Positions 1,385 to 34,478 of a DNA stretch of 64,000 nt are shown piece after piece; the stretch's first letter is position 1; the number at the start of each line of letters is the position of its first letter. The notes below the pieces were generated by a model. That model was not told the origin of the DNA. It worked only from the letters and a program-made list of their open reading frames with translations, and searched no databases. The position numbers were made by a program, and so were the translations under genes. The DNA is taken from IMG/VR virus record IMGVR_UViG_3300037067_022526, positions 64,001-128,000 of that record, one strand, 5' to 3'. The stretch is from a virus. Taxonomy: Duplodnaviria > Caudoviricetes.

Positions 1385-3687
1385 ATCAATTCTTCCATGT
1401 ATCCCAAAAATTCAGTATCGTATTTTCCTGACCACACACACATTCCAGGTATTTTTTCATAGGGTTTAGTATAGTTTAAAATCGTTTTAATATTGCCTTC
1501 GAAAATTTGTACACTATTTCTAACTATATCTGTCGATGTTGGATATTCGATATTATCTATGTTTTCTGGTTTAACTATAACAGTTATTTTATTATTAGGT
1601 ATAACCTGATAAATGTCACCAACATCTTTCATGTATTTTTTTTGTTCAAAGCTCATTAAGCTCCCGATTGTAACAACTTTGTTATTTAAATTGCCAACTA
1701 CATTAAGATTGCCTATTTCATCTTCCATTGCTTCTGCGCAATGTTCTGGTCCTATTTTTCCGAGAGCGTAATATTCTCGAAAAATTTTTGCTCCATCTCT
1801 GAATTCTTTGTTTTCAGTAAAATCATCTAAATCTAACTCGAAAACGTATAGTGTGGAATCATTAAAGACATTATCTCGATTGATTCGACCAGCCAATTGC
1901 AAAGCACTATTTAAATTGCAGTTTTCTCTGAAACCATTTCTGAAAGAAATGTTTATTCCAGATTCTATGCACGATGTTGCAATTAATATGAAATTCTCAT
2001 CGGAACTTAATCGTGATTTGATATCTTCTAATATGACCTCTCGATCTGTAGCACAAAGTGCTGTGGACATGTGTAATACATGTTCACGCCCAATTATCTT
2101 TGATATTGTTTTTGCAACCAATGCTGCGTTTTTGACAGTGTTAAAAACCGCTACTACCGGACCTTTGCTGCGCTCATTTATAACAGCATTACAAATTTGG
2201 GGTAAAGATAGTTTATTCCAATGCCCGTTATCTTGTATGCCGCCTAATTGCTTTATTGTAACTCTGGATTTTTCTTGTTTAAGAGTTATCTCTGAAATCT
2301 CTGGTGGAACTATAGATGGGACATTATAATCAAAACCATCTAAGACATATTTTCTAAATCGCTTGATTTCCCAAGGCTTCGTCATAGACCCAGACACAAA
2401 CAGTACTCGGCATCCCATATTTTCAACTAACCATTTTAAGTAATATAATGTAAGTGGCCACAATTTTGAGGGCAGGCAACAATGAGACTCGTCAAAAATA
2501 ATGAATTTACCGGCTAAATTGAGATACTTTCTAAGCTTTTTAGGTGTGTATCCAGCCAAAGTTTCACAAAATTGTACTGCGGTTGTGCAGGTAATTGGAC
2601 AATTCCATGTCTGTGTATAAAGTTTTGCGGATAGATCATGTTCAAAATCTACTCCAAGATGATGCTCTGCAACGGTTAATTTATCATCTTCTTCGGGCAA
2701 AACAATTGCTTTTCTATAAGTGTCTGCAGTTTGGCTAATAATATTAGTATAAGGTGCAACATAAATTATACCTGACATATTATTAGTATTAACAGTATGT
2801 AAAGCATATGCCAAAGATGATAAAGTTTTGCCATTACCAACTTCACTAGCAAGATATGTAAATGATGCGGAAATTTCTGAATGTCTACACGATTGATATA
2901 TAGCTTGCCTTATTTTGTTCCTCTCGGTTTCTGCTGAAAAGCTACTAACATATTTATCTAGTTGTAGTAATCTTTCATTTGCTTTTATTGGGATTGTGTC
3001 TTCTACTATGAAGTTCTTGTAATTTTTAGCAGTGTCATAGTAGTCTGCTGTTACGAGTACGCTTAATGCTAATCTTGATAGTGGAGCACTAATATTCTTG
3101 TTATAATTCATTCCGCTTTTCAGAGGAGAAACACTTAGGGGTTCAACTAAATTTATTTCTTTTTTATGAAGTTCCATTAGCTTGTCTAATTTTGCATCGA
3201 CATATTCGCTCATGAGCATGTCTGTTTCTTTTACCCACGGACATCTTTCCCCTAGTAAATTATTATCTCGAAGGTCATCGTATAGATTTTTTTGGTATCC
3301 GAGATGATGAGCGAAAACAAGCCATGCTGCGTACCTATATTGATCTGATAAAGACATGTTCCCGTTTTGTGCTGCCTTGTCACATTGACTTATCAGATAA
3401 GACACACCGGCATCAACATGATTTGGCATTTTACAATTTAATACTTTACCACTTAAAACCATTTGACAATAAGGATCAAGCTTCCCTGTGTCATGGTACA
3501 AAATTGCGGTTAATAAATGACATTTTAGAAAATTATAATGATCTTCTGATATGAATGATTTTAATTTTTCTATTTCTTGCTCTGCTTTTAAGTATACACC
3601 AGATATATGATCAATAAAAGATTGTTCTGGAATGTTTCTTTCCAAATCTGCTGAATGGGCTAAGTTACAATTCACTCTACTTTTCAT
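1381..3687 (-). CDS. cas3: Cas3 HD nuclease-helicase (type I-C-like)
   Basis: HD motifs AHS..DH, YHDTGK, AHH; SF2 motifs VGNGKT, YVAPYTNII, FDESH, FNTV, LQLAGRINR; CRISPR context. Confidence 0.95.
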   Translation of the reverse strand: MKSRVNCNLAHSADLERNIPEQSFIDHISGVYLKAEQEIEKLKSFISEDHYNFLKCHLLTAILYHDTGKLDPYCQMVLSGKVLNCKMPNHVDAGVSYLISQCDKAAQNGNMSLSDQYRYAAWLVFAHHLGYQKNLYDDLRDNNLLGERCPWVKETDMLMSEYVDAKLDKLMELHKKEINLVEPLSVSPLKSGMNYNKNISAPLSRLALSVLVTADYYDTAKNYKNFIVEDTIPIKANERLLQLDKYVSSFSAETERNKIRQAIYQSCRHSEISASFTYLASEVGNGKTLSSLAYALHTVNTNNMSGIIYVAPYTNIISQTADTYRKAIVLPEEDDKLTVAEHHLGVDFEHDLSAKLYTQTWNCPITCTTAVQFCETLAGYTPKKLRKYLNLAGKFIIFDESHCCLPSKLWPLTLYYLKWLVENMGCRVLFVSGSMTKPWEIKRFRKYVLDGFDYNVPSIVPPEISEITLKQEKSRVTIKQLGGIQDNGHWNKLSLPQICNAVINERSKGPVVAVFNTVKNAALVAKTISKIIGREHVLHMSTALCATDREVILEDIKSRLSSDENFILIATSCIESGINISFRNGFRENCNLNSALQLAGRINRDNVFNDSTLYVFELDLDDFTENKEFRDGAKIFREYYALGKIGPEHCAEAMEDEIGNLNVVGNLNNKVVTIGSLMSFEQKKYMKDVGDIYQVIPNNKITVIVKPENIDNIEYPTSTDIVRNSVQIFEGNIKTILNYTKPYEKIPGMCVWSGKYDTEFLGYMEELI

Positions 3688-4161
3688 GGAAGAAACACCT
3701 CAATAGTAAGACTTTCAGTTGTAATTCACTCCACTTTTCAAAAGGGGAGAAACACCACGCCCGCCGATCTTTCCGCCGTCGGTTCCGTTACAATTCACTC
3801 TCTTTTTTCAGGAGAGAAACATCAAGTGTCAGCGTCATGTTGCAAGTCTTTCAAAAAATTAGTTGTAATTCACTCCCCCTTTCGGGGGAGAAACACCTCG
3901 TGATTTATGTTACCTATGCACTCGGCGGTTGCAATTCACTCCCCCTTTCGGGGGAGAAACACCTATACCCGAGTGGGGTACAGAAGTTGGCGTGTTGCAA
4001 TTCACTCCCCCTTTCGGGGGAGAAACACCCCCGCTCGTATAACATACCGTAACTGCCAGGTTGCAATTCACTCCCCCTTTCGGGGGAGAAACACCCGTCC
4101 TGAGAATCAAGCAATGCTAGGTCTAGTTGCAATTCACTCCCCCTTTCGGGGGAGAAACACC
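3664..4161 (-). CRISPR. CRISPR array 2: five near-identical repeats plus three degenerate trailer repeats
   Basis: Repeats at 3862 (one mismatch), 3928, 3994, 4060 and 4126, minus-strand GGTGTTTCTCCCCCGAAAGGGGGAGTGAATTGCAAC, with 30-nt spacers; degenerate copies at 3664, 3718 and 3787 with 18-, 30- and 38-nt spacers. Confidence 0.97.
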
Positions 4162-4271
4162 CGAGCACTCATAACTTGGTATAATTCAACACTTTATGAG
4201 TGTTTAGGGTCACAAATTTTGAGATATTTGGTTTACTTTTCAAAGAACGCCTCTCGTTTTTTGCGAATTCT
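4162..4271 (-). promoter_or_regulatory. Leader of array 2
   Basis: Homologous to 1240-1349; inverted repeat ACTCATAA/TTATGAGT around an IHF-like site (ATTCAACACTTTA). Confidence 0.75.
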
Positions 4272-5250
4272 AGCTCAGATCATGTACTTCAAAACTGAAT
4301 CCACATTCCGCAGCATTGGGTACATTGTAATCACTTAGACATATTGGTTTGTCGTTTTTTGCAGTAGGCTTAAGATTATTTATAAATTCAGTTTCTTTGA
4401 AACTTCCAATAGTATTAGAATGGTCTGCCCACCAAACATGTTGTAAATTCATCGAACCCGATGGACGTGCACACGAAGACGATGTTTCGAAAATATGTGG
4501 TAGTATTTTCTTAAGAATATCAATATCTTCTTGGGCAGCATTGGTCAGATGGGCACAATGCGGGTTGACGGAAATTAGTTGATAATACATGCCGTGACGA
4601 ATAAATTTTAGCGCATTTGGACCTATATCTCCAGAAGGATCTTTATCTTTGATCGTTCTTCCTGTATCTGTTGCCAGATGATCTGCGCTTAATGGCGACT
4701 TTTTTGTAACACTTGCCTCGATAATTTCCACTGGCGCAATTGAACACCCGACACCAATCGAAACACATCCAGTACGAACAAATCGAGGTTCTTCTTTCTT
4801 TTCCTTCTCTAGCCCATCTGGTAGAGCTGTTGTTCCGAAAATCCTGACATCAAAATATCGATTTAAAAAGGCTTCAGGGTCAGACTTGGCTAGCGCCATT
4901 GCTTTTCTGGCACATTCAAGCTCTGATGTTCCAGCGTACCCTTTGTTGCGGCTTTCAAATACATACAATCGTTCAGGGTCAAGATTGTCTCTCTTTACAA
5001 AATCCTTGAAAACCGGATTATCATGATCGGACAAGAAATCCCTGATCTTCCTTTTAATAGACATTGGTGATACCCACCCATATCCATCTGGAAATGTGCG
5101 TGGAGCATTTCCTACATCCGGGTCTCCGTTGGGATTTCCACAAATTACTTCATACACTAGCATTCCAACACTGCGATTCAATTGATACATTTTTTTCTCC
5201 AAAGTTGAATTTTCTGTTACGATCGTTTCTGATTTAATTGACTTATTCAT
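4270..5250 (-). CDS. cas7: Cas7 (Csd2-type) backbone subunit
   Basis: NPNGDPD..NAPR and SIKRKIRD motifs, FDVRIFG; start moved to ATG 5250 (GGAG SD, overlaps the cas8 stop). Confidence 0.93.
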   Translation of the reverse strand: MNKSIKSETIVTENSTLEKKMYQLNRSVGMLVYEVICGNPNGDPDVGNAPRTFPDGYGWVSPMSIKRKIRDFLSDHDNPVFKDFVKRDNLDPERLYVFESRNKGYAGTSELECARKAMALAKSDPEAFLNRYFDVRIFGTTALPDGLEKEKKEEPRFVRTGCVSIGVGCSIAPVEIIEASVTKKSPLSADHLATDTGRTIKDKDPSGDIGPNALKFIRHGMYYQLISVNPHCAHLTNAAQEDIDILKKILPHIFETSSSCARPSGSMNLQHVWWADHSNTIGSFKETEFINNLKPTAKNDKPICLSDYNVPNAAECGFSFEVHDLS

Positions 5251-5716
5251 TGTTTTCTCCATTCGGATTTTCCACAGACACTTTTTCAAGATCAACACCG
5301 ATCTCTGACTTGACTGATTTTGGCGACCTATAAGCATATCCCATTTCCAGGAGTATTTTATAAATATCAGGATCAAACTCATTAAATTGGTTAACGCTCT
5401 TAAATTGATTATTATGTAAATCAGGCATTATATTCATAAGTTTACTAATTATTTCTTTATATTCTCTGATTGGCAAATAACCATGTTTATATGGCTCTTT
5501 TTCTTTGCGAATATAATTTTCTGCCCAACATTCGTACTTAGAAAAGTTTCCTATAAATGTTCCTAGCGCTCGTTTTGGAAATTTATATGCTTGCTGTATA
5601 TATTCTTGTCCGATAAGCTTTTGAGGTTCATTTATCCCTCTACTCTTAAAATATATTCGGTGAATATTGTTTGCTTGACTAAATAATTGTCCCATTAAAA
5701 ACGGCACACTGTTCAT
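5243..5716 (-). CDS. cas11: Cas11 small subunit translated internally from cas8
   Basis: In-frame ATG 5716 preceded by AAGGAG (5728-5723) at 6-nt spacing; MNSVPFLMGQLF motif; internal Cas11 translation is established for type I-C. Confidence 0.7.
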   Translation of the reverse strand: MNSVPFLMGQLFSQANNIHRIYFKSRGINEPQKLIGQEYIQQAYKFPKRALGTFIGNFSKYECWAENYIRKEKEPYKHGYLPIREYKEIISKLMNIMPDLHNNQFKSVNQFNEFDPDIYKILLEMGYAYRSPKSVKSEIGVDLEKVSVENPNGENNE

Positions 5717-7186
5717 GATCATCTCCTTTGTAAAACCATTTTTACTCAAAACAATCCCCGAAATTGGCACCAGCCATTGCCGTTCATACGGCATTTTTTC
5801 TAATTTACCATCAGAACACTCAATTAGCATTTTGGTATGATTTTTTGCAAATATGCGAGTAACTTTTTTAATTGCTTTTTCGTTTTCGAAAAAGAAGTCG
5901 TATATATCTGAAATTGTTATATACTCTCGCTCTATAATAGATGATATTTTATTACGATCATTTTTCCATATTTTATTAATACATTTAGAAAAATTAGAAA
6001 TAGTTGGCGGGAGAAATTTGCCTTTGCAAACAAATTTAGACGGACGAGTTGATGTTCCGGATACCCATTTGTTTACACAATTAGCAATATTTTTTCCATT
6101 CATTTCTTTATGATATTTAATTTGACACGCACCATTTTTGGGTATAAATAGGACAAAAATTGAACATTGAAATGGTGTTTTATTAATCTCACCGTTTAAC
6201 ATGTGAACAATCTTTTTGCCCTCTGCCTCCCATTGTTCAATATCCATTTGGTTGGATTCTTCTGTTCGACCCTCAATCCAGTCAGATGAAGGTGATAGAG
6301 TAGTAATAACCAAATCTCTTCCGTTGTCTTTTTGGATATAATACCAGAGACCATTTCGAGTGCCTTCTTTTCCTAAATTGTTATAATAAAAATTCTCAGA
6401 TACAATAGAATTGATGATTTTCAGTATTTGTTTGCGAGTAGAATTTCCGATTTTGCACGCATTTACACCAGACATGCCAAATCGTTCATAGCATTCATTA
6501 TCCTCATTTTTAGAATAAAGTTTTATTGTGCCGACGCCGCAAGGGAGCTTGGTTTCAAATGTTTTTGATTTATTTTCCCACCCATCGGCAGGATTGTTGA
6601 GTATGTCGATATCGATAGATGAGTTTGTTTGTTTAGAAATAAGCCAATCATTCACCACCTTCATTGACTCACTATTTTGAACCTTATTGGAAAATTTTAA
6701 TTGTTTCCAATCTGGAATGTCTAGAGAAAAATAACAACTTTTGATCTTTTTATCTTGTTGTGAAATAAAGTCATCTAATTTGTTCATTAAAGCATTTGGA
6801 TCAATTCGAGATAATCTATTGGATAATTCTTTGAAAGCACAAAACCTATCTTGATCATCTATATGTTTAGATATATCGGAATGGCAATATAAATGATGTT
6901 TAATTCCATTCAGTCTTTTCTTAGAATCTTTATTAGTGTCATATTTGAAAGTAAATCCAGATGCAAAATTAGAGTATTTAAAATATCTAAGATCGGAAGC
7001 AGACTCAGACTCAAAAGGTTCGATAGCGATATCAAGATTCTTATCAATTAATATAAGAAAACGTTGACCGTTATTATTTTTGGGCATTTGTGGATGCCAC
7101 GTTGTATCGTTTGTGTTTGATAAATCCCCAATATTCAGACCCCAGCTTTTTAAACTTTCTTCAATTGATAATATTTCATGCAACAT
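5243..7186 (-). CDS. cas8c: Divergent Cas8c (Csd1)-like large subunit
   Basis: Position between cas5 and cas7, 647 aa, C-terminal PFLMGQLFSQANNIH resembles the Cas11c region; N-terminal part not recognisable by eye. Confidence 0.75.
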   Translation of the reverse strand: MLHEILSIEESLKSWGLNIGDLSNTNDTTWHPQMPKNNNGQRFLILIDKNLDIAIEPFESESASDLRYFKYSNFASGFTFKYDTNKDSKKRLNGIKHHLYCHSDISKHIDDQDRFCAFKELSNRLSRIDPNALMNKLDDFISQQDKKIKSCYFSLDIPDWKQLKFSNKVQNSESMKVVNDWLISKQTNSSIDIDILNNPADGWENKSKTFETKLPCGVGTIKLYSKNEDNECYERFGMSGVNACKIGNSTRKQILKIINSIVSENFYYNNLGKEGTRNGLWYYIQKDNGRDLVITTLSPSSDWIEGRTEESNQMDIEQWEAEGKKIVHMLNGEINKTPFQCSIFVLFIPKNGACQIKYHKEMNGKNIANCVNKWVSGTSTRPSKFVCKGKFLPPTISNFSKCINKIWKNDRNKISSIIEREYITISDIYDFFFENEKAIKKVTRIFAKNHTKMLIECSDGKLEKMPYERQWLVPISGIVLSKNGFTKEMIMNSVPFLMGQLFSQANNIHRIYFKSRGINEPQKLIGQEYIQQAYKFPKRALGTFIGNFSKYECWAENYIRKEKEPYKHGYLPIREYKEIISKLMNIMPDLHNNQFKSVNQFNEFDPDIYKILLEMGYAYRSPKSVKSEIGVDLEKVSVENPNGENNE

Positions 7187-7203
7187 TTTTAATCTCCATT
7201 TAA

Positions 7204-7887
7204 TTATTTATTTAAATTTTCGTTTTCAAACTTTAGAATTCCATTGGCTGCGATTACTTTCTCGGGACCAAGTTGTAAAATTCCATGAGCGATTCGCAAA
7301 GTTTCTGTTATTGGAAATTGCATAATATATCCATTTTTTTTGTCAAAATATTGTAGGACATATCCGTGTAAAATTTCATTATAATCAGAAATTATGGGAG
7401 TTATAGGTAATCCGACATAATCAGAAAAAAAGTCGCTCGGACCAAGTGTCGGCATTCGATAATATTGTTCTTTACTTAATCGACGATAAAATTGATCGCG
7501 ATATGAATGGGCACAATTAATATGTGCGTATTTTGGGTGAGGTGGTTCTACGGTAGACCTTTTGGCGGTTGCACAAATTTGAAATCTAGGGCGAAGCAAA
7601 GCTGTAGCTTTTATTTGACATGCATTTCCATCTCTTTTCTGTCCTTCTTTTCGAATTGATGACCACGAATTAAAAGCATAATCTAAATATTCTGGTCGGT
7701 GACATATCCCGATAGCTTCTATTTGTATGGATGCACTTTTAACTCTTAAAATTGACTGCATTATACCAAATGCCGCAGTGGGCGTAGGAACTGGATAACT
7801 ACATGGTTCTGATCCGCTATCAGGTCTGGCGAACATGCCTATGGGTCCGCCAACCTCGAATATGATTCCGTAAGATTTCTGGTACAT
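7204..7887 (-). CDS. cas5: Cas5 (Cas5d-type, likely the crRNA-processing nuclease)
   Basis: EVGGPIGMFARPD..SYPVPTPTAAFGI motif; start at ATG 7887 after AAGGAG; no cas6 present. Confidence 0.92.
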   Translation of the reverse strand: MYQKSYGIIFEVGGPIGMFARPDSGSEPCSYPVPTPTAAFGIMQSILRVKSASIQIEAIGICHRPEYLDYAFNSWSSIRKEGQKRDGNACQIKATALLRPRFQICATAKRSTVEPPHPKYAHINCAHSYRDQFYRRLSKEQYYRMPTLGPSDFFSDYVGLPITPIISDYNEILHGYVLQYFDKKNGYIMQFPITETLRIAHGILQLGPEKVIAANGILKFENENLNK

Positions 7888-7907
7888 TCTGAATCTCCTT
7901 TCAAACA

Positions 7908-7936
7908 ATTATAACCTTAGCGTGATGGGAAGTCAA
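7908..7936 (-). promoter_or_regulatory. sigma70 promoter of the cas operon
   Basis: TTGACT-17-TATAAT on the minus strand. Confidence 0.8.
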
Positions 7937-7973
7937 GCGAGAGATATTAGATTTTTTAAAAATATTCGTGGCC

Positions 7974-8002
7974 TTGACAATTTACGTAGCAGGCAATATA
8001 AT
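7974..8002 (+). promoter_or_regulatory. Consensus sigma70 promoter, divergent from the cas operon
   Basis: TTGACA-17-TATAAT. Confidence 0.88.
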
Positions 8003-8011
8003 GGATTGTAA

Positions 8012-8046
8012 GATGTTTCTCCCCTAAAAAGGGAGTGAATTGCAAC
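8012..8046 (+). repeat. Solitary CRISPR repeat (array-type)
   Basis: GATGTTTCTCCCCTAAAAAGGGAGTGAATTGCAAC, intact 11-nt 3' handle, 9 nt after the -10 box. Confidence 0.9.
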
Positions 8047-8068
8047 GTGATGATGTCGAGGAAATCAG

Positions 8069-8353
8069 ATGTGGAATTTGACAGAACACGCAAAACCGGT
8101 CACCGGAGAAGAATCTTTAGTAATTTATACTTGTCCGCAATTTCTTGAGGACGAACATCCTGGTATATATTACATACACGAAGCATACTGTATACACAAT
8201 GGTTTCTGTCGTTATTACCCGGATGAAGGTTGGTTCTGTGGGGATAATAAAATGCCAGAACCCGTAGCGTGGATCCGTCCCGAAAAATTGTTAGAGTATT
8301 TTTTGACGCAACTACCCAGCAAAGATCAGTCAGCTACAACACCTTTCAGATAA
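8069..8353 (+). CDS. Hypothetical protein, paralog of 13268..13519
   Basis: Shared MWNLT..AKPV.GE.SLVIY and WFCGD..MPEP.AW.RPEKLLE motifs. Confidence 0.75.
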   Translation: MWNLTEHAKPVTGEESLVIYTCPQFLEDEHPGIYYIHEAYCIHNGFCRYYPDEGWFCGDNKMPEPVAWIRPEKLLEYFLTQLPSKDQSATTPFR

Positions 8354-9252
8354 TCAGATATCGCAGTCCTGATGATATCTACGTAAGAAATTTCACAGTC
8401 ATTTTCATATGCTTGCTTGCGGGCAACTCTTTTTAATTGTTCTAATTGATCACTCAAAATTCGGATGCTGATTGTGATATTCTCAACGACATTTTGAAAT
8501 TTCGACCCAAATTCACATCCGAAATCGCCATCAGACATATGTTGGTTTTCTTGCCGCAGCATCTCTTCGGTATAATCGGTATTCACTTCCCATGTGGGTA
8601 GTTGGCATATCAACCTGTAATCAGGTGCAGTTGAAATTAAATTATATAATAAATCGCCTTTGCGCCTTGGTGACGAGACTATAATAGTTCGTGATTCATG
8701 CACTCCGTCATGTTTGAAGTCGGCAGTGCTGGGAATCAATGCATTATAAATTCTATCACCCGACTGCCCTGGAAATGACGCGATCTCATTGAATACAAGA
8801 GTGAAATATCGCTTGCCCAGGAGATTTGAACTATTGGCGTGAGCAACCATTAAACAAATGTATCCTGATCGATTCCGCCTTGGCAACCAAATTTTGTTCT
8901 GCTCTATTTTGGTTATCTCATCTCGAAAATACTCAGATCGAGTAACAAGCAGTTTCAACTCCGTGAAGAAAGATCTTGCCTCCTCTGCACTATTACAAAC
9001 AGCAAGCTGATAAATCGTGTCCTGGTTTGGGATATTATAATATTCAAACGGATTTGGTATTTCTAATAGTCGCCGTGTCTCTGCCAGTAGCAGCAGTGTA
9101 GCAAGATAATCCTTTCCGCTACGTCTTCCCAAAACGGCAACTAACTCTCGGTATTGTCCAATATAGAAGTTGGACATGATTTCTTTTAACCTCGGATATA
9201 ACTTAATGTTAGGTGTAATTAAATATTGCTCGATAAATTCCATTGAAGTCAT
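8326..9252 (-). CDS. Terminase-large-subunit-like ATPase domain fused to a C-terminal ribbon-helix-helix domain
   Basis: GRRSGK Walker A, LVFNEIA (Walker B with D to N), IVSSP, LPTWEVN; no nuclease domain; RHH ISIRI..LKRVAR..SYVDIIR; start at 9252 with GAAAGGAG SD. Confidence 0.75.
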   Translation of the reverse strand: MTSMEFIEQYLITPNIKLYPRLKEIMSNFYIGQYRELVAVLGRRSGKDYLATLLLLAETRRLLEIPNPFEYYNIPNQDTIYQLAVCNSAEEARSFFTELKLLVTRSEYFRDEITKIEQNKIWLPRRNRSGYICLMVAHANSSNLLGKRYFTLVFNEIASFPGQSGDRIYNALIPSTADFKHDGVHESRTIIVSSPRRKGDLLYNLISTAPDYRLICQLPTWEVNTDYTEEMLRQENQHMSDGDFGCEFGSKFQNVVENITISIRILSDQLEQLKRVARKQAYENDCEISYVDIIRTAISDYLKGVVAD

Positions 9253-9358
9253 AAAAAGCTCCTTTCTACTAATACTTACTTCGCTGTCATAATTATTTCC
9301 TGTAAGAATTATGACAAAATTTACCACATAATACATTATACAGCGCAGGAGATGTGGA

Positions 9359-9583
9359 ATGTTTCTTCAATGAAGTGAATTGCAACTTGACAACTCCCAC
9401 AGCCAGCAGTATAATGAGCCGTAAGATGTTTCTCTTTTGAAAAGAGGAGTGAATTACACAACATGGTAGTGTGGATTTTACTCATCAATGCCATACTTTG
9501 TGCATTATTCTTCTTTTTCGGCGTTTTCTGCGGATGGAGTTTAAGCTCGGATATAGATGTTTCTCCCCTGAAAAGGGGAGTGA
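9359..9583 (+). repeat. Three degenerate or partial CRISPR repeats (mini-array-like)
   Basis: Copies at 9359-9386, 9425-9462 and 9556-9583 (the last has a perfect array-1 hairpin and lies inside an ORF). Confidence 0.8.
9387..9415 (+). promoter_or_regulatory. Consensus sigma70 promoter in spacer position
   Basis: TTGACA-17-TATAAT; homologous to 7974-8011. Confidence 0.85.
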
Positions 9584-11439: not shown

Positions 11440-11623
11440 ATATGATTGGGTTTGAGTGGAATTATTGTGGAGTATGTGGATGTCGGTTAGCCCCTGACGA
11501 TTTTGATGGTATTTGTTGGGATTGTGACCGCAAATGTCGTATTTGTGGTTGCGAGCTTTCGGATGAAAATACTGGTACGATTTGCCCTGTCTGCGGAGAA
11601 TTAGAATCTCGACTGGAGATCAC

Positions 11624-12004
11624 ATGAACGTAAAATGGCGTAATAGTGGTAAATTTGACAAAGAAGCAATAAATAGAGGCTCTCAGCCTATATTTCTTCC
11701 AACTATAATATTCAGCATCATAGCCTATTTGTATTTCGGTTGGATATCAGTGATACTTATAATTCTCGCTGGTGTCATTGCTATATATTTTATAGGTAAA
11801 CATACTAAATCAATGTATTGCTCAAAGCATGATTGCCCTATAGAGGAAAGACATTGGGATTTTTACGATGTAGAATATTATTGTCCGACATGTCATGAAA
11901 AAGAAGTGAAGGAATACAAACAACAAGTAAGAGAAGCACGTATATCTGAGTATGCAGAAGGTGCCCGCAGGGCGCTATTAGAGCAGGATCGAGATTATAC
12001 CTAA
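11624..12004 (+). CDS. Membrane protein with C-terminal Zn-binding motif (duplicate A)
   Basis: Two TM segments, CxxH..CxxC; near-identical flank and start with 12067..12348. Confidence 0.65.
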   Translation: MNVKWRNSGKFDKEAINRGSQPIFLPTIIFSIIAYLYFGWISVILIILAGVIAIYFIGKHTKSMYCSKHDCPIEERHWDFYDVEYYCPTCHEKEVKEYKQQVREARISEYAEGARRALLEQDRDYT

Positions 12005-12066
12005 TTTAACCATCGAAGAATGTTTGAAATTATTAGAGAAAAATTAGAATCTCGACTGGAGATCAC

Positions 12067-12348
12067 ATGAACGTGACATGGCGTAATAGTGGTAAATTTG
12101 ACAAAGAAGCAATAAGCAGAGGATGTAGATTTATGATGCTTCCAGTTGTAATGTCCAGTATTATAACTTATATGTACTATGGTTGGATACCACCAGTAAT
12201 AATAGTTTCTGTTGGTATAATATCTGTTTATTTTATGGGTAAACATACTAAATCAATGTATTGCCCAAAACATGATTGTCTCATAAAGGAAAGACGTTTT
12301 GATTTTTATGATGTAGAGTATTATTGCCCGAAATGCTCGAAGAGGTGA
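12067..12348 (+). CDS. Membrane protein with C-terminal Zn-binding motif (duplicate B)
   Basis: Tandem paralog of 11624..12004. Confidence 0.65.
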   Translation: MNVTWRNSGKFDKEAISRGCRFMMLPVVMSSIITYMYYGWIPPVIIVSVGIISVYFMGKHTKSMYCPKHDCLIKERRFDFYDVEYYCPKCSKR

Positions 12349-12415
12349 AAAATTATGTCTAATTCTGAATTTTGTCGTAGAATGGGATTGTCGGGAGTAA
12401 TTTAAAGGAGAAAAA

Positions 12416-12892: not shown

Positions 12893-13267
12893 AATGGCAA
12901 CCGAACCGTGTAATTTACCAATGATTAAGATGATGTGGCACTTGGGGTTTCTGCGGTTGTTGGTAGAAAAAGAGTTCGGCAGAAGTAGCAGTTTAACTAT
13001 ACGACAGTTGAGTGGCGGTGCCGCCTCGGAGTGAAAAATGAACGCGTTGCTTGTCGGCAAGAGAGAAGAGGACGGTCAATTCCATGTTTACCACATGGCA
13101 CTTTATCCCGAGACCCCAACTCAGGTTGACATAGACGATCTCCGTCGAGAATTATCTGAAACCCCAGAATTTGGACTGATGGACAGAATAAGCGAAATGG
13201 AAATACGAGCCACAGTGCTGAGACCAGAGGCGGGACAGCCGCCACCGGAAAACAAGGAGAGTGAAAA

Positions 13268-13519
13268 ATGTGGAACTTGACCAAGAATGCGAAGCCTGTC
13301 TCGGGTGAGGATTCTCTCGTAATTTATTTTCACCCGCAAATTGGTCATTATATTCACGATGGCTTCTGTCGATACTTTCCACCTTATGACAGTCGTGAAG
13401 GCAAATGGTTTTGTGGTGACGATGAAATGCCTGAGCCGATTGCGTGGATGCGTCCTGAGAAGCTGCTTGAGTTCTTTCTGGTAACTAGTGCAGGACAGCC
13501 GCCGCTGGAAAACACATAG
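13268..13519 (+). CDS. Hypothetical protein, paralog of 8069..8353
   Basis: Shared motifs; AAGGAG SD. Confidence 0.7.
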   Translation: MWNLTKNAKPVSGEDSLVIYFHPQIGHYIHDGFCRYFPPYDSREGKWFCGDDEMPEPIAWMRPEKLLEFFLVTSAGQPPLENT

Positions 13520-16173: not shown

Positions 16174-16202
16174 TTGACATATGCGTAATTTGGCGGTATA
16201 AT
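16174..16202 (+). promoter_or_regulatory. Consensus sigma70 promoter
   Basis: TTGACA-17-TATAAT. Confidence 0.85.
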
Positions 16203-16208
16203 ACTAGT

Positions 16209-16341
16209 AGTGCGGCATGTCGTAAAGCCTGCACCAAAATCCATGCCAGGATGTTTGTTGCTCGCCACTGCACTAACCGTAATTCTGACGAGCCGTATTG
16301 CCTTAATTAAAGGCATCCAGGTAATTCGATCATGCCGCACT
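16209..16341 (+). ncRNA. Candidate structured RNA or 5' leader (rod-like)
   Basis: Starts at the predicted TSS; 11-bp terminal helix AGTGCGGCATG/CATGCCGCACT plus inner helices. Confidence 0.5.
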
Positions 16342-20090: not shown

Positions 20091-20091
20091 C

Positions 20092-22931: not shown

Positions 22932-23459
22932 ATGATTAAGGTTCGATGGGCAGTGCTGAGTGTTGCAGTATTGCTGGCAACTTCAACGGTTGCGATGGCA
23001 GACAGTTTTATGTTCAGCTTTAGCTTTGGAAGACCGATTTATACTTATGCAGAAGTAGCTTATGTTACTCCAGTTGTATACGAGCCTCCGGTGGTTGTAT
23101 ACGAGGAACCAGTAGTTGTATACGAGCCTCCAGTCGTAGTAACATACCTTCCACCGCCAACTAGATATGTTTATCCTGTGACTTTATACCATCCATGTCC
23201 AACTTATGTATTTAACTGGACAGTGTATCATCACGATCGGCCGTTTAATCATGGCAGGTTTAGTTATGAACACCGGCGATTTGTCCCTCGAACTGAAATT
23301 AGTCATCGTCCTGTCCACCAGCCCAGGATTGATGTTCAACGCAGCCAACGTATTGGCTCTCAGCACAGAATTGGTAGTCGTCCTGTTAGCCGTCAATCCG
23401 GGTTGAGTCATCGCCCTGGTTTAAGTCGGCGGTCTAACTCTGGTCATCGCGGCCGGTAA
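22932..23459 (+). CDS. Secreted Pro/Val/Tyr-repeat (PXPV-like) protein
   Basis: Signal peptide, VVYEPP repeats, Arg-rich tail. Confidence 0.65.
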   Translation: MIKVRWAVLSVAVLLATSTVAMADSFMFSFSFGRPIYTYAEVAYVTPVVYEPPVVVYEEPVVVYEPPVVVTYLPPPTRYVYPVTLYHPCPTYVFNWTVYHHDRPFNHGRFSYEHRRFVPRTEISHRPVHQPRIDVQRSQRIGSQHRIGSRPVSRQSGLSHRPGLSRRSNSGHRGR

Positions 23460-26132: not shown

Positions 26133-26510
26133 TTAGACCTCTTCATATCCATCAAATCCAGTATCGGCCAAATCATCTGGCTTTTTAAGGTTTGATATTA
26201 TAATATTTCTTGCAATTTTCCATTGTTTTACAGAATGTAATCGAAGTGTTTCGCCATCGGGTTCACTGTGATATTTAGCATCTCGACCAGCCGGAGTATT
26301 CTCCATGAATTCATTTCGAACATTGACTTCCTGATTAATGCCGTTTTTGATAACCTTGTCCCATAAATTAACTGTTCCATTGATAGCATCTTCGGGTAGA
26401 AAATTAACTGCCAATGTGTATAACAATATGCGGTCAAACATCTTCATGTATTTGCCGACAAATTGAATATCTGAGTCCTTTAATATTTCTTGAAGTTCTT
26501 TTCCGTCCAT
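26133..26510 (-). CDS. Hypothetical protein
   Basis: 125-aa ORF in a minus-strand trio. Confidence 0.55.
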   Translation of the reverse strand: MDGKELQEILKDSDIQFVGKYMKMFDRILLYTLAVNFLPEDAINGTVNLWDKVIKNGINQEVNVRNEFMENTPAGRDAKYHSEPDGETLRLHSVKQWKIARNIIISNLKKPDDLADTGFDGYEEV

Positions 26511-27571: not shown

Positions 27572-27582
27572 TAGGAAGTTTT

Positions 27583-29388: not shown

Positions 29389-30113
29389 AAAAGTCTAACG
29401 TTTTAGTAGTGACGATGACTCATTCGAAACGACTGGAACATCTTCCTACAATTTTGCGGGAACTTAAAGAACAAACTTATTGTTGCGATTATTGCGTCTG
29501 GAACAACAGTGAACACAATATATTCTTCGACAATATAAGGGTTTTTCGTGGATTCAACGATCTCAACCCGATGCAGCGATTTGTGCCTGCCGTTATATCA
29601 GACTATGAGTATATTTTTTATTGTGATGATGATATTCGAGTGGGAAAACAATTTGTTGAATTTGCAATTTCATATTTATCCAATAGAAACTCGACAATTT
29701 TAGTAGCGGGTGGCAGCTTGATACTCAGGCCAACCGATGATGGCGGGTTTCAAAGAGATGAACATTGGGGAGTTTCAGAACTAAACAATAAAGAAATTCT
29801 AGTTGATATTGGTGCATCAGGATCGGTATTTTGCAAATCTAATTTGTTAAGGCCGGTTTTTATGGTACATATTCCATATGAAATTATGAGCACTGATATT
29901 GCAATGTCTGTTGCACATCATTTATATAACCATGGCGATCTAATAATACCTCCCCATGATGGTGATTCGACTCGTATGATAGAAAATTTTCATCCGTGGC
30001 ATTCAACCGGCAAGAACTCATCTCCTAATTTCACCAGTACTAAAAACGGTTTATTGCGGTATATTATTCAGACCACAAAATGGATTCCCCCATCATGGCA
30101 ACGAAAGCAGTAA
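29385..30113 (+). CDS. GT-A glycosyltransferase-like protein
   Basis: FYCDDD motif, EQT..VWNN. Confidence 0.6.
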   Translation: MKKSNVLVVTMTHSKRLEHLPTILRELKEQTYCCDYCVWNNSEHNIFFDNIRVFRGFNDLNPMQRFVPAVISDYEYIFYCDDDIRVGKQFVEFAISYLSNRNSTILVAGGSLILRPTDDGGFQRDEHWGVSELNNKEILVDIGASGSVFCKSNLLRPVFMVHIPYEIMSTDIAMSVAHHLYNHGDLIIPPHDGDSTRMIENFHPWHSTGKNSSPNFTSTKNGLLRYIIQTTKWIPPSWQRKQ

Positions 30114-31048
30114 TTCTTCATTATGGTAGCAATGATTTTTCCGATGTATATCAGAATGCGTCTAGAATTTTAGATGAAGAATACAACATTCGATCTGTCT
30201 GTGCGCTAGATAATAAATCATTGGTTTCTCAGGTTAAGAATTTTCAAAAGAAATATCAGAAAGTATTGCTGGTTAGCCATGATTTGCTACCGTTTGACAC
30301 ACTGAAAGAATGTTTATTCGAGAATGTATATTATTTTGGTGGCCAAACTCTTTCAAAGCGACATCAGATCCAAACGCTTCGATCGTATAAAATAAATGTT
30401 CCAGAAGATATAGCATTTCCATCTGATATTAAAGATGTTTTTAGTAAACTCGGTAATCATGTAATTGCCGGTCCAGACACTTACGCGGCGTCATCTAACC
30501 AACTAATCAATTTTTTAGTGTATGACCCAGTAAAAAATAAGATAAAATACAAAAGGGCAGGGGATGATGACAACTCTGTTATGTTCGGAAAGTTTCATGA
30601 AATGTATTCATATGAATTCACTAATTGGAATAGATATTATTACACTAAATATGTTGGATCATCTGGTCCAATATATTGGCGGGCTAAAATTGAATCAATA
30701 TTCGGCGAATATATTATGGGGTATGTCATGGAATCGCATGAGAATGCTCCGTCGGCACCTTTTATTAGGCTCAACGAATCAATTATTACAGAGCCAACAG
30801 AAACAATGATCTCTCTGGGAAAGAAAATATCTTCTATAATGGCAACCGAACATCAATGTGGATTTATCAGTGTTGACATGGTATTGGATTGCCCGCCAAC
30901 ATTGGCCACCGAATCCAATATATTCGTTGTTGAGACTAATTTAATGTTGGTCGGACTTTACTACAATCCGTTTAAAGTCAATCGCAGCAATGGAATTGCA
31001 CTGGGATGCTACAACTTTTTAGAAAACCATATGAATTGCCCTGTATGA
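30095..31048 (+). CDS. ATP-grasp-like protein
   Basis: K..Q...L....INVP, GFISVD, FVVETN. Confidence 0.45.
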   Translation: MATKAVILHYGSNDFSDVYQNASRILDEEYNIRSVCALDNKSLVSQVKNFQKKYQKVLLVSHDLLPFDTLKECLFENVYYFGGQTLSKRHQIQTLRSYKINVPEDIAFPSDIKDVFSKLGNHVIAGPDTYAASSNQLINFLVYDPVKNKIKYKRAGDDDNSVMFGKFHEMYSYEFTNWNRYYYTKYVGSSGPIYWRAKIESIFGEYIMGYVMESHENAPSAPFIRLNESIITEPTETMISLGKKISSIMATEHQCGFISVDMVLDCPPTLATESNIFVVETNLMLVGLYYNPFKVNRSNGIALGCYNFLENHMNCPV

Positions 31049-32064
31049 TTTATTATGCAAATAGAGATCCAGTCCAATATTTACAAAATAAGCCCGATTT
31101 GATTGACCACTCTATAATTTCGGTTGCTGGTGGGATGGGATATATTCACTTTTTGAATGAACATACTCAAAACCTGTTAGTGGTAGACAGAGACCAGCAA
31201 AACCTTGATTATAATCAACATATATGTGAATTAATACAGAATTCTAGTTCTCTTCAGGAATTTTGTACAACTATACGAGCACAGCAGCAAAATAGTGGTA
31301 TTAAAATATATTATGACTGCAACACAGACGTAACGCAACAACTAATGAGTTATCATTGGTATTTTGGGACCAATCATCCGTATTCTGCTTTTTATGATGA
31401 GAATTCTTTTGTTAAAATGAAAAGAAAAATTACATTGGCCAGATTCATATTAGCAGATTTGTCAAAGATTAATTATTCTCACTGGCAAAGGAATGCAACA
31501 TATGTATATGTTTCTAATGCAGATTGGAATATCTACAATAAATCTGATGGTATTTTACATCAAATTATTTCAAGCATGAAAATGAATTCTATTATATATT
31601 ATCGATCTTGGTATCGGTCTCTTACTCTCAGGCCCGGAATGCACCACATAGATGCTGCCGCAAAGTTAATACCGTATACGACCAATAGATCTATTACAGA
31701 AATCAAAACACATAACGGATATACATTTAAGACTGGCGAGTTACACGAAAAATCCAAGCGCATTTTGTGTTTCAACGAGCAGCCTACCCAGTCTGGAATA
31801 TGTGATTGTTTATTATATCACATTTCATTGGATAAATCTGACGATTATGAATTGGTTATTAAGAGCTATTTCAATGATATATTGGGATCCTATAAAAGAA
31901 TTATCATATTAGATCACAGCAGCAATGCCAGTGAAATTCAGTGGATAAAATATCTCAAAGATATTAATTTCCACTACTCATATCAATTATGTGGAATTGA
32001 ATGGTCTGGCGGAAAGACGAGTCTAGATCGTAATTTTATTATGATATGGGATTTGCGGCGTTGA
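31045..32064 (+). CDS. Hypothetical protein (possible SAM-fold)
   Basis: SVAGGMG..VVD motif; island context. Confidence 0.5.
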   Translation: MIYYANRDPVQYLQNKPDLIDHSIISVAGGMGYIHFLNEHTQNLLVVDRDQQNLDYNQHICELIQNSSSLQEFCTTIRAQQQNSGIKIYYDCNTDVTQQLMSYHWYFGTNHPYSAFYDENSFVKMKRKITLARFILADLSKINYSHWQRNATYVYVSNADWNIYNKSDGILHQIISSMKMNSIIYYRSWYRSLTLRPGMHHIDAAAKLIPYTTNRSITEIKTHNGYTFKTGELHEKSKRILCFNEQPTQSGICDCLLYHISLDKSDDYELVIKSYFNDILGSYKRIIILDHSSNASEIQWIKYLKDINFHYSYQLCGIEWSGGKTSLDRNFIMIWDLRR

Positions 32065-33028
32065 TATACTTATCCACATTGCCCAGTATACTATCAACTG
32101 TATCGTCCGTCCTGATTGTTGAAATTGCTGATTGTTTTACTATTTCATCAACGAATAAATTTTCCTCAACCATTGTTGGGACAACAGAGAAAAATGTATG
32201 AGCATCTCGTCGTCCGGCATAACAACACCGTTTTGTGAGCAATTCAATTTTGGGTAGAATTGGAAATGATCTGGCGACAAAAACTGAATTTTGTTTACCG
32301 GACAATTCAGCGATAGGGATATTTCCTCCGGGAGATAAAGTATAATTGGCGATAATTCCGTACATATCGATATAATTGTCATATAACTGTAATGAGCCGA
32401 TGCTGACATCTGCTACTGCGATGGATGCGCTGTCATTGTTGATATATTTAGCAAAAGCGTCGCTAATTTTTACCTCTTTATACCCGCTTCTCTGTATTCG
32501 AGTATTGAAATCATTGTTTTTATAACCAACGGGCACAACAAATTCTTGATATCCGTTAACTTTATACCACGCAGTCCTTTCAAAACTAGAACTATTTCTA
32601 AACCGAGCAAAAGTATTATCTGAAACTAGATGCATTATGATTTCAAGATAATGAGCGTCAGGTAATATATATGGGTCGGCCACCACCACAACATCGGATG
32701 TTGATCTGGTGACAGCATAATTTATTGCGTGCGGAATATTGAATGTTGCTGTATTTTCCAATCTTAAAATAGTAATCTTGTCAAAAACATCGTAACCGTT
32801 TTTGCTCTTTTCCTCTGACGTATTTATTTTGATATTATACTTTTGGGCTACTGGCATAATGTTATTATATACAGGTTCATCGGAACTATAATCAACCAAT
32901 ACTATATCAAAGGTTTTGTAAGTCTGGGATATCCAGAATGGCACCGAAAATCTCAATACCTCTGAGCAGTTGAAGCAGGGTATAATTACTGAAGCTTTTT
33001 TTGAATAATAGTTCATTATATTTCCCAT
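32039..33028 (-). CDS. GT-A glycosyltransferase, paralog of 27583..29388
   Basis: IIPCFN..VDYSS..FNIPHAIN..VNGYQE. Confidence 0.75.
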   Translation of the reverse strand: MGNIMNYYSKKASVIIPCFNCSEVLRFSVPFWISQTYKTFDIVLVDYSSDEPVYNNIMPVAQKYNIKINTSEEKSKNGYDVFDKITILRLENTATFNIPHAINYAVTRSTSDVVVVADPYILPDAHYLEIIMHLVSDNTFARFRNSSSFERTAWYKVNGYQEFVVPVGYKNNDFNTRIQRSGYKEVKISDAFAKYINNDSASIAVADVSIGSLQLYDNYIDMYGIIANYTLSPGGNIPIAELSGKQNSVFVARSFPILPKIELLTKRCCYAGRRDAHTFFSVVPTMVEENLFVDEIVKQSAISTIRTDDTVDSILGNVDKYINAANPIS

Positions 33029-33702
33029 TTTTTATCTAACGTAGAATATTTATATTTTCTAAGGAAATGATCGTAACCCTTTTTTTGATATATACTATGC
33101 GGATCATGTAATTTGTAGAATTCATACCTTTCCATTATACGGGATGAAGAACAAAGGCTGAAATGGTAAATTTTTGATGATAGATGATAGGTATCATACC
33201 CGGTTTTTGTTGGAAATCTAGATGTATGTAATCTATCAATATCTGATAGATTATAATGCCCATCTGTCATTCTGGAAATAATTGTAGTTTTGTGATTCAC
33301 ATAAATTCCTTGAGTAATATAATGATGTTCATCCGGATACAACGTTATCATATCAGCGGTATAATAATCATTCTCTGGAATAGACCCCAATTCATCTATA
33401 AATGATTCATCTAAAATTTCATCAAGATCAAGATATAAAGAAAATTGTTTTCGGGTTGTTAGTGCCATAGAATGCAAAGATTCTCTATCACATACTTCAC
33501 TAAAATTACACTTAGATGTTTTTTGTGCAATATAGGCACATTTGGGATGACCCTTTAATTTATCATAGCAATGAGTGTCTGTTGATCTGTCATCTATAGC
33601 AACAAAACAATCACAATATTGCATATTATAATGCATAAACCTGTCAATCAGGTCGTTTGAATTTCTAAATCTAAAAATAAGTACAATATCTGATATATTC
33701 AC
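33016..33702 (-). CDS. GT2-family glycosyltransferase
   Basis: IDDRSTD, LDLDE. Confidence 0.7.
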   Translation of the reverse strand: MNISDIVLIFRFRNSNDLIDRFMHYNMQYCDCFVAIDDRSTDTHCYDKLKGHPKCAYIAQKTSKCNFSEVCDRESLHSMALTTRKQFSLYLDLDEILDESFIDELGSIPENDYYTADMITLYPDEHHYITQGIYVNHKTTIISRMTDGHYNLSDIDRLHTSRFPTKTGYDTYHLSSKIYHFSLCSSSRIMERYEFYKLHDPHSIYQKKGYDHFLRKYKYSTLDKKWEI

Positions 33703-33704
33703 GG

Positions 33705-34295
33705 TTATTTATGCATGTAAATTGTGGCATCGTTGTTTAGATATTCTTGTTTTATGACTACATTATTGGAAATCGATTTGCAATAACTCAATATTTCATC
33801 TGGATCTCTATATATATAATCATCTAGTTTGTGTTTTGCGTGAATGCTTATAAAATTAAATGCTACGCCTATTTTACATAACTTAAACATTTTGTCGATG
33901 GTCGCCCACATCCATTCTGTGTGATGTGCTGTTGGACTACTGAAAATTCCTGATGCTACTACATAGTCAAATTGCGAATCAATGGTTTCATCGAGAATAT
34001 CCAACACAAAAACATTTGCATCGGGATATCTCTGTTTTGCTATTTGTATTCTTGCCGGATCGATATCAACTCCGGTATAATTTGTATCCCTCTGTATGTG
34101 CTTGAACAAATCTGCGTATCCGCATCCTACATCTAAAACGGTTTTATGCGACCAGTCACCGATCCCCTTAAGTATATCAAACCGAGTTTCTTGAGTGCAA
34201 CAGCTATACCATCCGAGTATTTTGGGATGTTCGGAGAACATATCAGACAGTATCGCATTAAAATTTATGATTTCAAGTTTATCTTCTTCAAACAT
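33705..34295 (-). CDS. Class I SAM-dependent methyltransferase
   Basis: VLDVGCGYAD, YTGVDI, FDYVVASGIF. Confidence 0.88.
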   Translation of the reverse strand: MFEEDKLEIINFNAILSDMFSEHPKILGWYSCCTQETRFDILKGIGDWSHKTVLDVGCGYADLFKHIQRDTNYTGVDIDPARIQIAKQRYPDANVFVLDILDETIDSQFDYVVASGIFSSPTAHHTEWMWATIDKMFKLCKIGVAFNFISIHAKHKLDDYIYRDPDEILSYCKSISNNVVIKQEYLNNDATIYMHK

Positions 34296-34335
34296 GATAT
34301 ATTATACACTTTTGAAAAATTTTAGAGGAATCTGC

Positions 34336-34363
34336 TTGACTTCCGGTGAATAGTGGGTATAAT
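34336..34363 (+). promoter_or_regulatory. sigma70 promoter of the tRNA cluster
   Basis: TTGACT-16-TATAAT. Confidence 0.75.
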
Positions 34364-34369
34364 TAGGCA

Positions 34370-34400
34370 GTCGCGCCTTGATAGGCGTGTGGATTGTAAG
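34370..34400 (+). repeat. Solitary canonical type I-C-like CRISPR repeat
   Basis: GTCGCGCCTTGATAGGCGTGTGGATTGTAAG against the canonical pattern GTCGCGCC-loop-GGCGCGTGGATTGAAAC. Confidence 0.65.
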
Positions 34401-34409
34401 GAGATTATC

Positions 34410-34478
34410 GTGAAACGAGAGCTAGACAGATTATATTGTTTGCTGGATTGGTACCTCCGAAAGGAGGTGGCTGCCTAA
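34410..34478 (+). CDS. Putative attenuator leader peptide MKRELDRLYCLLDWYLRKEVAA
   Basis: AAGGAG 6 nt before GTG; codons match the downstream tRNA anticodons; followed by a terminator. Confidence 0.7.
   Translation: MKRELDRLYCLLDWYLRKEVAA

Follow-up and report, generated by a model that had tools for sequence, protein, structure and literature searches.

We analysed a 64,000-nucleotide (nt) stretch of DNA (the window) from a tailed phage (Duplodnaviria; Caudoviricetes; IMG/VR record IMGVR_UViG_3300037067_022526), in which single CRISPR repeats lie at the starts of genes and, in three cases, directly behind sigma70 promoters. The window is part of a virus record of 90,156 bp (38% G+C, about 65% complete) and contains a tRNA cluster and phage proteins. 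Genome-wide scans cover this 90-kb record, and absence from it is not proven absence from the phage. L025, which was assembled independently, matches at 100% identity across 19.8 kb; it represents the same phage and offered no variation.

The phage has its own CRISPR-Cas locus, located entirely on the minus strand in the order cas5-cas8-cas7-array 2-cas3-array 1:

7908–7936, minus strand: Pcas, the promoter of the cas5-cas8-cas7 operon (TTGACT-17-TATAAT), back to back with a promoter-repeat cassette on the other strand (cassette 1, below)
7204–7887, minus strand: cas5, Cas5d-type, 227 amino acids (aa), with AAAGGAG followed by an ATG at 7887 (Pfam Cas_Cas5d, E = 2e-5)
5243–7186, minus strand: large subunit, cas8c-like by position and size, with no Pfam hit and 29% identity to the gene at the same position in contig L014
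4270–5250, minus strand: cas7, 326-aa form, Csd2-like (Pfam Cas_Cas7, E = 7e-42)
3862–4271, minus strand: array 2, a leader (4271–4162) and five intact 36-nt repeats
3664–3823, minus strand: three decayed repeats trailing array 2 (3823–3787, 3756–3718 and 3699–3664)
1381–3687, minus strand: cas3, 768 aa, with Pfam helicase and C-terminal domains
872–1349, minus strand: array 1, a leader (1349–1240), five intact repeats (1239–942) and a decayed repeat (911–872)

The Cas5 assignment rests on a Pfam Cas_Cas5d score of 25 bits (cut-off, 23) and on a match to the type I-C Cas5 in PDB entry 8g9t (E = 9e-4). No cas1, cas4, cas6 or csy4 was found in the 90-kb record; cas2 was not searched for. The locus thus has the make-up of a type I-C interference module (Cas5d-type Cas5, Cas7, Cas3, no Cas6, and a large subunit that is Cas8c-like by position only) and, judged by its genes, is a divergent relative of that type, limited to interference. 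In the sense of the CRISPR RNA (crRNA), its repeat reads GGTGTTTCTCCCCT-GAAA-AGGGGAGTGAATTGCAAC, a hairpin followed by an 11-nt handle with a ATTGAAAC-like end, which agrees with the canonical handle TGGATTGAAAC at 9 of 11 positions. The two arrays differ at the closing pair of the hairpin by a compensatory change from T-A to C-G, their leaders are 93% identical, and in both of them repeat decay increases away from the leader. The hairpin covaries when the repeat family is compared together with the solitary copies: 84% of cells are paired, five of seven pairs change on both sides, and none of 500 shuffles attains the score. The exact repeat did not occur in the viral or metagenome contigs searched; five metagenomic contigs (L014, L015 and L017–L019) carry its family, GGTGTNTCTC...GAGTGGATTACAAC, and a single pattern match in L016 was judged to be due to chance (no hairpin, GC 53%). 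No match to the array spacers was found in GenBank phages. The oldest spacer of array 1 (941–911, minus strand) matches the neighbouring methyltransferase-like gene (window 399–429) at 25 of 31 positions with a CCA flank, a partial self-match.

The first-pass annotation of this window had drawn attention to four non-array placements of a repeat at translation starts, namely those of cas3, of the open reading frames (ORFs) at 8069 and 9463, and of a leader peptide before the tRNA cluster, and had proposed that together they form an mRNA regulon controlled by Cas5 and other Cascade subunits. All four repeats are present, and their matches are far above chance (nhmmer E = 1e-6 to 1e-10; zero pattern hits expected in shuffled sequence); at none of the solitary units did Rfam report CRISPR-DR or another family. 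The sites are of three different kinds, an array end at cas3, two cassettes with the phage's own type of repeat and one unit with a host-type repeat, rather than four independent placements. Nor do solitary units occur only at gene starts: beyond the four, one precedes a promoter (9359–9386), one lies inside ORF 9463 (9556–9583) and one inside cas3 (3134–3100). We suggest, with about even confidence, that the flagged sites represent a phage version of the known standalone CRISPR-repeat RNA elements together with one by-product of gene order.

The own-type units are found in two cassettes on the plus strand:

7974–8046, plus strand: cassette 1, TTGACA-17-TATAAT (7974–8002), 9 nt, and an own-type repeat (8012–8046) with a 5-bp stem and the perfect handle TGAATTGCAAC
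9359–9386, plus strand: psiR0, a shortened hairpin and perfect handle directly after ATGTGGAAT, abutting the -35 box of cassette 2
9387–9462, plus strand: cassette 2, TTGACA-17-TATAAT (9387–9415), 9 nt, and an own-type repeat (9425–9462) with the handle TGAATTACACAAC

As had been described, the repeat of cassette 1 ends 22 nt before the ATG at 8069, the ATG at 9463 immediately follows the repeat of cassette 2, and, counting the host-type unit, three of the sites follow perfect or near-perfect sigma70 boxes by 6–9 nt. The consensus CTTGAC[AT]-16/17-TATAAT occurs nine times in the 90-kb genome; three of the nine lead directly into a repeat, another one is Pcas, and the only two promoters matching at 12 of 12 positions in the 9.7 kb scanned are those of cassettes 1 and 2. 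The two cassettes flank the phage's own cas operon. All plus-strand copies have ATGTTTCT in place of the GTGTTTCT of the arrays; because this derived feature and the same promoter are shared, cassettes 1 and 2 are, by sequence, paralogues, one invention that was copied once. The ATGTGGAAT preceding psiR0 corresponds to codons 1–3 of a DUF551-like gene, and a fainter psiR0-like trace lies upstream of cassette 1.

When the cassettes are aligned, the -35 and -10 boxes, GTAAGATGTTTCTC, the loop and GGAGTGAATT are identical, whereas only 9 of the 17 nt of the promoter spacer agree and what follows the repeat shows no more conservation than neutral DNA. In the stem of cassette 2 (CUCUUUU/AGAGGAG) all seven pairs are kept through G-U pairs and one compensatory change, which argues for selection on an RNA hairpin transcribed from the plus strand. 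Thus, the cassettes look to be under selection, their boxes, hairpin and handle having been kept while the rest diverged. A borderline unit with a repeat-like hairpin and handle (CTTCCC...GGGAAGTGAATCATAAT; nhmmer E = 0.005–0.02) was also observed at genome positions 12374–12399, some 4 kb to the left of the window (L155:67-102); it lies between ORFs of 1796 and 226 aa, 18 nt before AAGGAG-ATG, and its stem is kept by a compensatory change.

A unit of another kind precedes the tRNA cluster:

34336–34400, plus strand: TTGACT-16-TATAAT (34336–34363), 6 nt, and a look-alike of the canonical type I-C repeat (34370–34400)
34401–34540, plus strand: structured RNA (z = -4.85) with a 22-codon ORF (34410–34478), a GAAA-tetraloop hairpin and a strong terminator (34502–34540), directly before the tRNA cluster

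The repeat overlaps AAGGAG (34398–34403) before the GTG at 34410, in agreement with the first description of the site. Its sequence, GTCGCGCCTTGATAGGCGTGTGGATTGTAAG, differs from the phage's own repeat family, and a pattern built from it matched true I-C arrays in nine bacterial genomes (Gammaproteobacteria and others), the commonest repeat of which, GTCGCGCCTTCACAGGCGCGTGGATTGAAAC, agrees with it at 26 of 31 positions. It folds as a 5–6-bp hairpin with a handle that is altered from GAAAC to GTAAG, the change that creates AAGGAG. TATAAT ends 6 nt upstream, and therefore transcription should begin on the first G of the unit. The 130 nt that follow fold strongly. Neither a canonical I-C array nor a second canonical unit turned up in the record, and the only other repeat-like element downstream is a hairpin with the handle-like TGGCTGCCTAAG, 49 nt after the unit. 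These features, including a promoter within 250 bp upstream, are those by which viral solitary repeat units (SRUs) and candidate RNA anti-CRISPRs (Racr) have been defined. From its sequence, the unit is most likely an RNA anti-CRISPR, of the Racr or Cracr type, aimed at the I-C system of a host.

The cas3 site is of a third kind. The ATG (3687–3685) does lie inside the loop of a decayed repeat (3699–3664), and a Shine-Dalgarno (SD)-like GAGGTG straddles the boundary between spacer and repeat; that repeat, counted at first as a non-array placement, is the trailing end of array 2. It has lost its hairpin and does not fold, and in repeat frame 3 it encodes the start of Cas3 (VSS-MKSRVNCN-LAHS). 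The last repeat of array 2 that can fold (3756–3718) has a handle that ends 31 nt before the ATG. A promoter scan detected no promoter between array 2 and cas3; therefore, cas3 is probably the 3′ part of the precursor crRNA, read from the array-2 transcript. That its start falls in the decayed last repeat would follow from the position of cas3 directly behind an array, an order also present in two relatives (L011 and L012), and the site is a by-product of gene order rather than a separate placement.

In L011 and L012, which share the order cas7-array-cas3, Cas7 is 45% identical (tblastn) and Cas3 36% identical to the phage's proteins; in L011 the ATG of cas3 lies 38 nt after the intact last repeat, where the next repeat would start. 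Other relatives have cas3 directly after cas7. Searches for word-sharing relatives of Cas5 found none, and Cas7 and Cas8 had no matches in the viral contigs searched. Near its cas locus, L011 also has a promoter-driven mini-array (TTTACA-17-TGGTATAAT, repeat, 23 nt, repeat). The promoters of the cas operon and of the mini-array (L011:3440-3530 and 12970-13000) are nearly identical (GGTTTACAAGC...TTTTTG.GGTATA.T), a resemblance that suggests that both are regulated together. In the L011 array at 7044–8432 the repeat flanks are identical and the loops are of several lengths and sequences (GAGCATC, GAGTATC, GAGTAAAATC), which is unusual within one array.

Behind each cassette lies an ORF, and repeat-derived DNA has also entered coding sequence:

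8069–8353, plus strand: ORF 8069, which encodes a small phage protein similar to DUF551 and has an SD sequence of its own, GAGGAA
9463–9840, plus strand: ORF 9463, chimeric, with only aa 40–125 homologous to proteins of other phages
9556–9583, plus strand: a truncated own-type repeat with a perfect hairpin, its handle lost after TGA, at the junction within ORF 9463
3100–3134, minus strand: a repeat-derived segment inside the cas3 coding sequence (aa 186–196, VSPLKSGMNYN)

ORF 8069 has a paralogue at 13268–13516 with the same MWNLT start, an ordinary AAGGAG leader and no repeat. Residues 1–39 of ORF 9463 are encoded by array-derived DNA and form a hydrophobic N-terminus that includes the repeat-encoded VSPLKRG, whereas its homologues in other phages (L020–L024, which have no cas context, and P0154 and P0155) align from residue 40 and have a different 25-aa N-terminus. 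DNA homology to these phages begins at about 9580, exactly at the truncated repeat. As read from these alignments, the native SD sequence, start and 25 N-terminal codons of the gene are replaced by array-derived DNA. We considered whether 9556–9583 could be a one-guide unit replacing its target and rejected this, its handle being truncated and no TTC preceding the homologous site in L020–L022. The two repeat-derived peptides of Cas3 (aa 1–8, MKSRVNCN, and aa 186–196) are in the same repeat frame on either side of the HD nuclease domain, which is arranged as if it had been joined to the helicase through recombination at repeats. Given the chimeric ORF 9463 and the repeat segments in cas3, we therefore regard the repeats of this phage as places where recombination has recurred and as a source of coding sequence.

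Several other features of the record were observed. Between the two cassettes lies a gene for a 336-aa protein (8326–9336, minus strand) with a terminase-large-subunit-like ATPase region (PHROG 2, E = 9e-11; PF27249 MJ0330_N in the precomputed Pfam list); it is distant from the packaging genes, and its annotated ATG overlaps a TATAAT, so that the true start is uncertain. Two more CTTGACA-17-TATAAT promoters, at window 16174–16280 and at genome 84706 (window 68308, outside the window), have hairpins downstream and no nearby SD sequence or ATG; the downstream sequence is not CRISPR-repeat-like by the profiles used and may represent small RNA genes. Between two tRNA-Leu/Asp genes, a tRNA-like sequence (34702–34793) that was not called by ARAGORN scores 31 bits with the Rfam tRNA-Sec model, below the threshold, and may be a long-arm tRNA. 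A 294-nt direct duplication (11599–11892 and 12042–12335, 80% identity) lies downstream of a DUF4419 gene, and a 21-nt unit is repeated three times in tandem within a coding region at 23072–23141 (a 7-aa repeat).

Do the solitary repeats supply guides? The sequences after every solitary repeat were compared with the 90-kb genome, by overall identity as well as by seeds proximal to the protospacer-adjacent motif (PAM). No pseudo-spacer target with at least 10 PAM-proximal nt and a TTC flank was found in the phage, where only chance 8–9-mers occurred. The only match at Pcas, a 9-nt A-rich word by the -35 box with a TTT flank, belongs to a unit lacking a handle and is at chance level. No PAM-flanked partial target was found in L011, and an IMG/VR search with 16-nt PAM-proximal words of two pseudo-spacers returned chance-level matches, none of which extended. 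Likewise, no cas promoter target for the 34370 unit was found in the nine bacterial I-C loci; the genome of the host may still hold one. A pseudo-spacer (psiS) matching a cas or toxin promoter over at least 9 PAM-proximal nt, the mark of CreR, CreA and Cracr RNAs, was thus found neither in the phage nor in L011 nor in the nine I-C loci, and self-targeting of the CreR type was rejected, there being no PAM-flanked match beyond chance in the 90-kb genome.

How might these units act? Transcription, cleavage, Cas binding and their effects we infer from the sequences, promoters, folds, homologies and junctions described above. The consensus early promoter of each own-type module would start transcription 2–3 nt before the single repeat. 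Cleavage of the Cas5d type at the base of the hairpin would then set free a short hairpin RNA; the downstream RNA would keep the 11-nt 5′ handle of a crRNA and would recruit the phage's Cas5 and Cas7 as a crRNA does. The own-type modules would accordingly be Cas-binding regulatory or sponge RNAs of the SRU or degenerate mini-array class, brought close to start codons by minimal leaders and by recombination at repeats. The host-type unit would be a separate element, a canonical I-C mimic transcribed from its first base, with an altered handle and followed by a structured RNA and a terminator. The alternative that the first-pass annotation had itself held in reserve, decoys or regulatory guides, corresponds to classes already described (SRU/Racr, CreR/CreA and Cracr).

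Viruses are already known to carry solitary repeats behind promoters, and these have so far been read as decoys against host CRISPR systems. Racr RNAs such as RacrIF1 and RacrIC1 are viral solitary repeat units, with one validated example for type I-C (Camara-Wilpert et al. 2023, PMC10651486). Like them, the units described here are single repeat look-alikes in a phage, directly behind a promoter and outside arrays, and the 34370 unit mimics a canonical I-C repeat for which the phage has no array. Cassettes 1 and 2 likewise have a promoter within 250 bp upstream of a solitary repeat, in their case the phage's own; unlike Racr, they stand beside cas genes and arrays of the same type. A survey of cellular loci also described isolated repeat units and mini-arrays between the genes of cas loci, and reported standalone repeat-like sequences in 34% of those of type I-C (Shmakov et al. 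2023, PMC10120712); here, in contrast, a phage carries the locus, and the units are joined to consensus promoters and to the leaders of mRNAs. The CreR/CreA and Cracr mini-arrays (10.1101/2023.03.10.532045; 10.1101/2024.10.29.618823) share the arrangement of a promoter followed at once by a handle-donating repeat beside a cas promoter, and L011 has their full layout of repeat, short spacer and repeat. Of the psiR1-psiS-psiR2 layout, cassette 2 has psiR0-promoter-repeat and cassette 1 a faint version; unlike those systems, no recognizable second repeat follows 8046, and no phage promoter has a PAM-flanked partial target. Finally, the virus-borne mini-CRISPR arrays implicated in interviral conflict (Medvedeva et al. 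2019, PMC6858448) resemble this case in being very short arrays in a virus and, as at ORF 9463, in the fusion of a repeat to part of a gene that is intact in other phages; here, however, the handle of the junction repeat is gone and the homologous site in other phages has no PAM in front of it.

Several points weigh against reading the sites as standalone repeat RNAs. Decoys of the own type, driven by consensus promoters, would be in competition with the crRNAs of the phage itself. The inhibitory product of RacrIF1 is the RNA upstream of the cut, a part that is nearly absent here (a few nt and the hairpin), with the predicted transcription start at the repeat; the long product would be the downstream RNA with its handle, as for CreR-type handle donors. 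Unlike Racr RNAs, cassettes 1 and 2 have no downstream terminator, and each runs into an ORF rather than ending. The case for selection is thin, being drawn from two paralogous copies and one distant relative, and the record is only about 65% complete.

The solitary repeats might instead be scars of illegitimate or repeat-mediated recombination between the arrays and neighbouring genes, lying behind ordinary early promoters and having no function as RNA, a view that we consider unlikely. It agrees with the truncated repeat exactly where the homology of ORF 9463 to other phages' gene begins, with the repeat-derived segments flanking the HD domain of cas3 in one frame, with psiR0 following three codons of a DUF551-like gene and with the decay of several units. 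Random scars, however, would not be expected to follow three of the nine consensus promoters by 6–9 nt, nor do they account for the selective conservation of promoter boxes, hairpin and handle between otherwise diverged cassettes, for the G-U pairs, specific to RNA, in the stem of cassette 2, or for the 34370 unit, whose repeat type has no array in the phage. A role as crRNA-like guides, in which the roughly 30 nt after the handle serve as a fixed spacer that represses promoters (as in CreR, CreA and Cracr) or attacks rival phages as a one-guide mini-array, seems to us rather improbable. The layout of promoter and handle donor is indeed that of CreR and Cracr genes, cassette 1 and Pcas stand back to back, a true mini-array (repeat, 23 nt, repeat) is present in L011, and a second hairpin with a handle-like end follows the 34370 unit; the failure of every target search, in the phage (where the lone Pcas word is at chance level), L011, IMG/VR and the nine I-C loci, speaks against such guides, as do a conservation after the repeats no better than that of neutral DNA and the lack of a downstream repeat for cassette 1.

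The translational model of the first-pass annotation holds that Cas5 cleavage produces handle-capped mRNAs on which Cas7 polymerizes over the SD sequence and start. The level of free Cascade subunits would then gate translation of cas3, ORF 8069, ORF 9463 and the leader ORF; cuts at the internal hairpins (9556–9583 and 3134–3100) would also destroy those mRNAs. The anatomy permits this mechanism, and occlusion of the ribosome site by Cas5 and Cas7 is possible on these grounds: the start lies within about 33 nt of the end of the last processable handle, roughly one 30-nt spacer, at every site (+31 for cas3, +23 for ORF 8069, +1 for ORF 9463 and +10 for the GTG at 34410, with +18 at the borderline unit outside the window), and transcripts predicted to begin 0–3 nt before the repeat would leave the handle-tagged mRNA as the only long product. 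The position of the cas3 ATG in L011 points in the same direction. A direct repeat engineered into an mRNA leader (5′ DREDGE) does cause down-regulation that depends on the cognate Cas RNase, the mechanism put forward in the first-pass annotation, in a synthetic system with Csy4 or dCas12a in eukaryotic cells (PMC12191184). The literature searched contained no natural bacterial or phage case of Cas control through a leader repeat. To our knowledge, Cas-dependent translational control of mRNAs has no natural family.

Closeness to start codons, however, is to be expected anyway. Repeat-free promoters in this phage lie 18–20 nt from the ATG, promoter-proximal leaders are about 12–15 nt long and intergenic gaps are short; with leaders so minimal, compaction alone would therefore place the repeats near the starts. 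The distance from repeat to start is neither conserved nor closer than this local compaction predicts, except at cas3, where the ATG lies 31–38 nt after the last processable repeat here and in L011. The one comparison with a relative does not bear out the model: L011 is the sole relative with a promoter-driven own-type unit, and its mini-array lies 136 nt from the next gene. Other relatives have cas3 directly after cas7. Moreover, the sites are heterogeneous and not independent, the terminal cas3 repeat is unfolded, the start of ORF 9463 is an artefact of fusion in a chimera, the paralogue of ORF 8069 has no repeat, and one of the repeats is of a foreign type that the phage's Cas5 may not recognize. 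The first-pass interpretation is partly supported: the anatomy allows it, and these points do not fit a regulon of four members. We rate this translational mechanism as rather improbable; a dedicated Cas5/Cas7 regulon is possible, gains no specific support from these sites, and ranges from rather to very improbable. Very improbable, too, is a switch in which the phage's own Cascade subunits control the translation or mRNA stability of the early ORF 8069 and ORF 9463 transcripts and of the cas3 message, all born with a crRNA handle. If true, free Cas5 and Cas7 would cover the ribosome site or cut at internal hairpins, and expression, including that of the Cas3 nuclease, would report Cascade protein not occupied by crRNA; the switch would be an RNA-level counterpart of the CreR/CreTA circuits and would possibly arm a chimeric, membrane-active protein (ORF 9463) when the anti-CRISPR of a rival disables Cascade.

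Returning to the reading that we favour, a phage version of standalone repeat RNAs with cas3 as a by-product of gene order, what is unusual is the co-occurrence of own-type and host-type units, fused to mRNA leaders, in a phage with its own Cascade, together with a start of cas3 that is built from a repeat. One genome holds both a mimic of a host-type repeat and, next to its own cas operon, copies of the phage's repeat that are tied to the phage's early mRNAs. If only the known decoy role holds, the phage is a well-documented further example of it. It is also a compact test case for whether the RNA-processing and backbone proteins of Cas systems act on mRNAs in nature, for how Cas3 is regulated in phage-borne CRISPR systems when its gene lies behind an array, and for how gene fusions and new start codons arise from CRISPR repeats.

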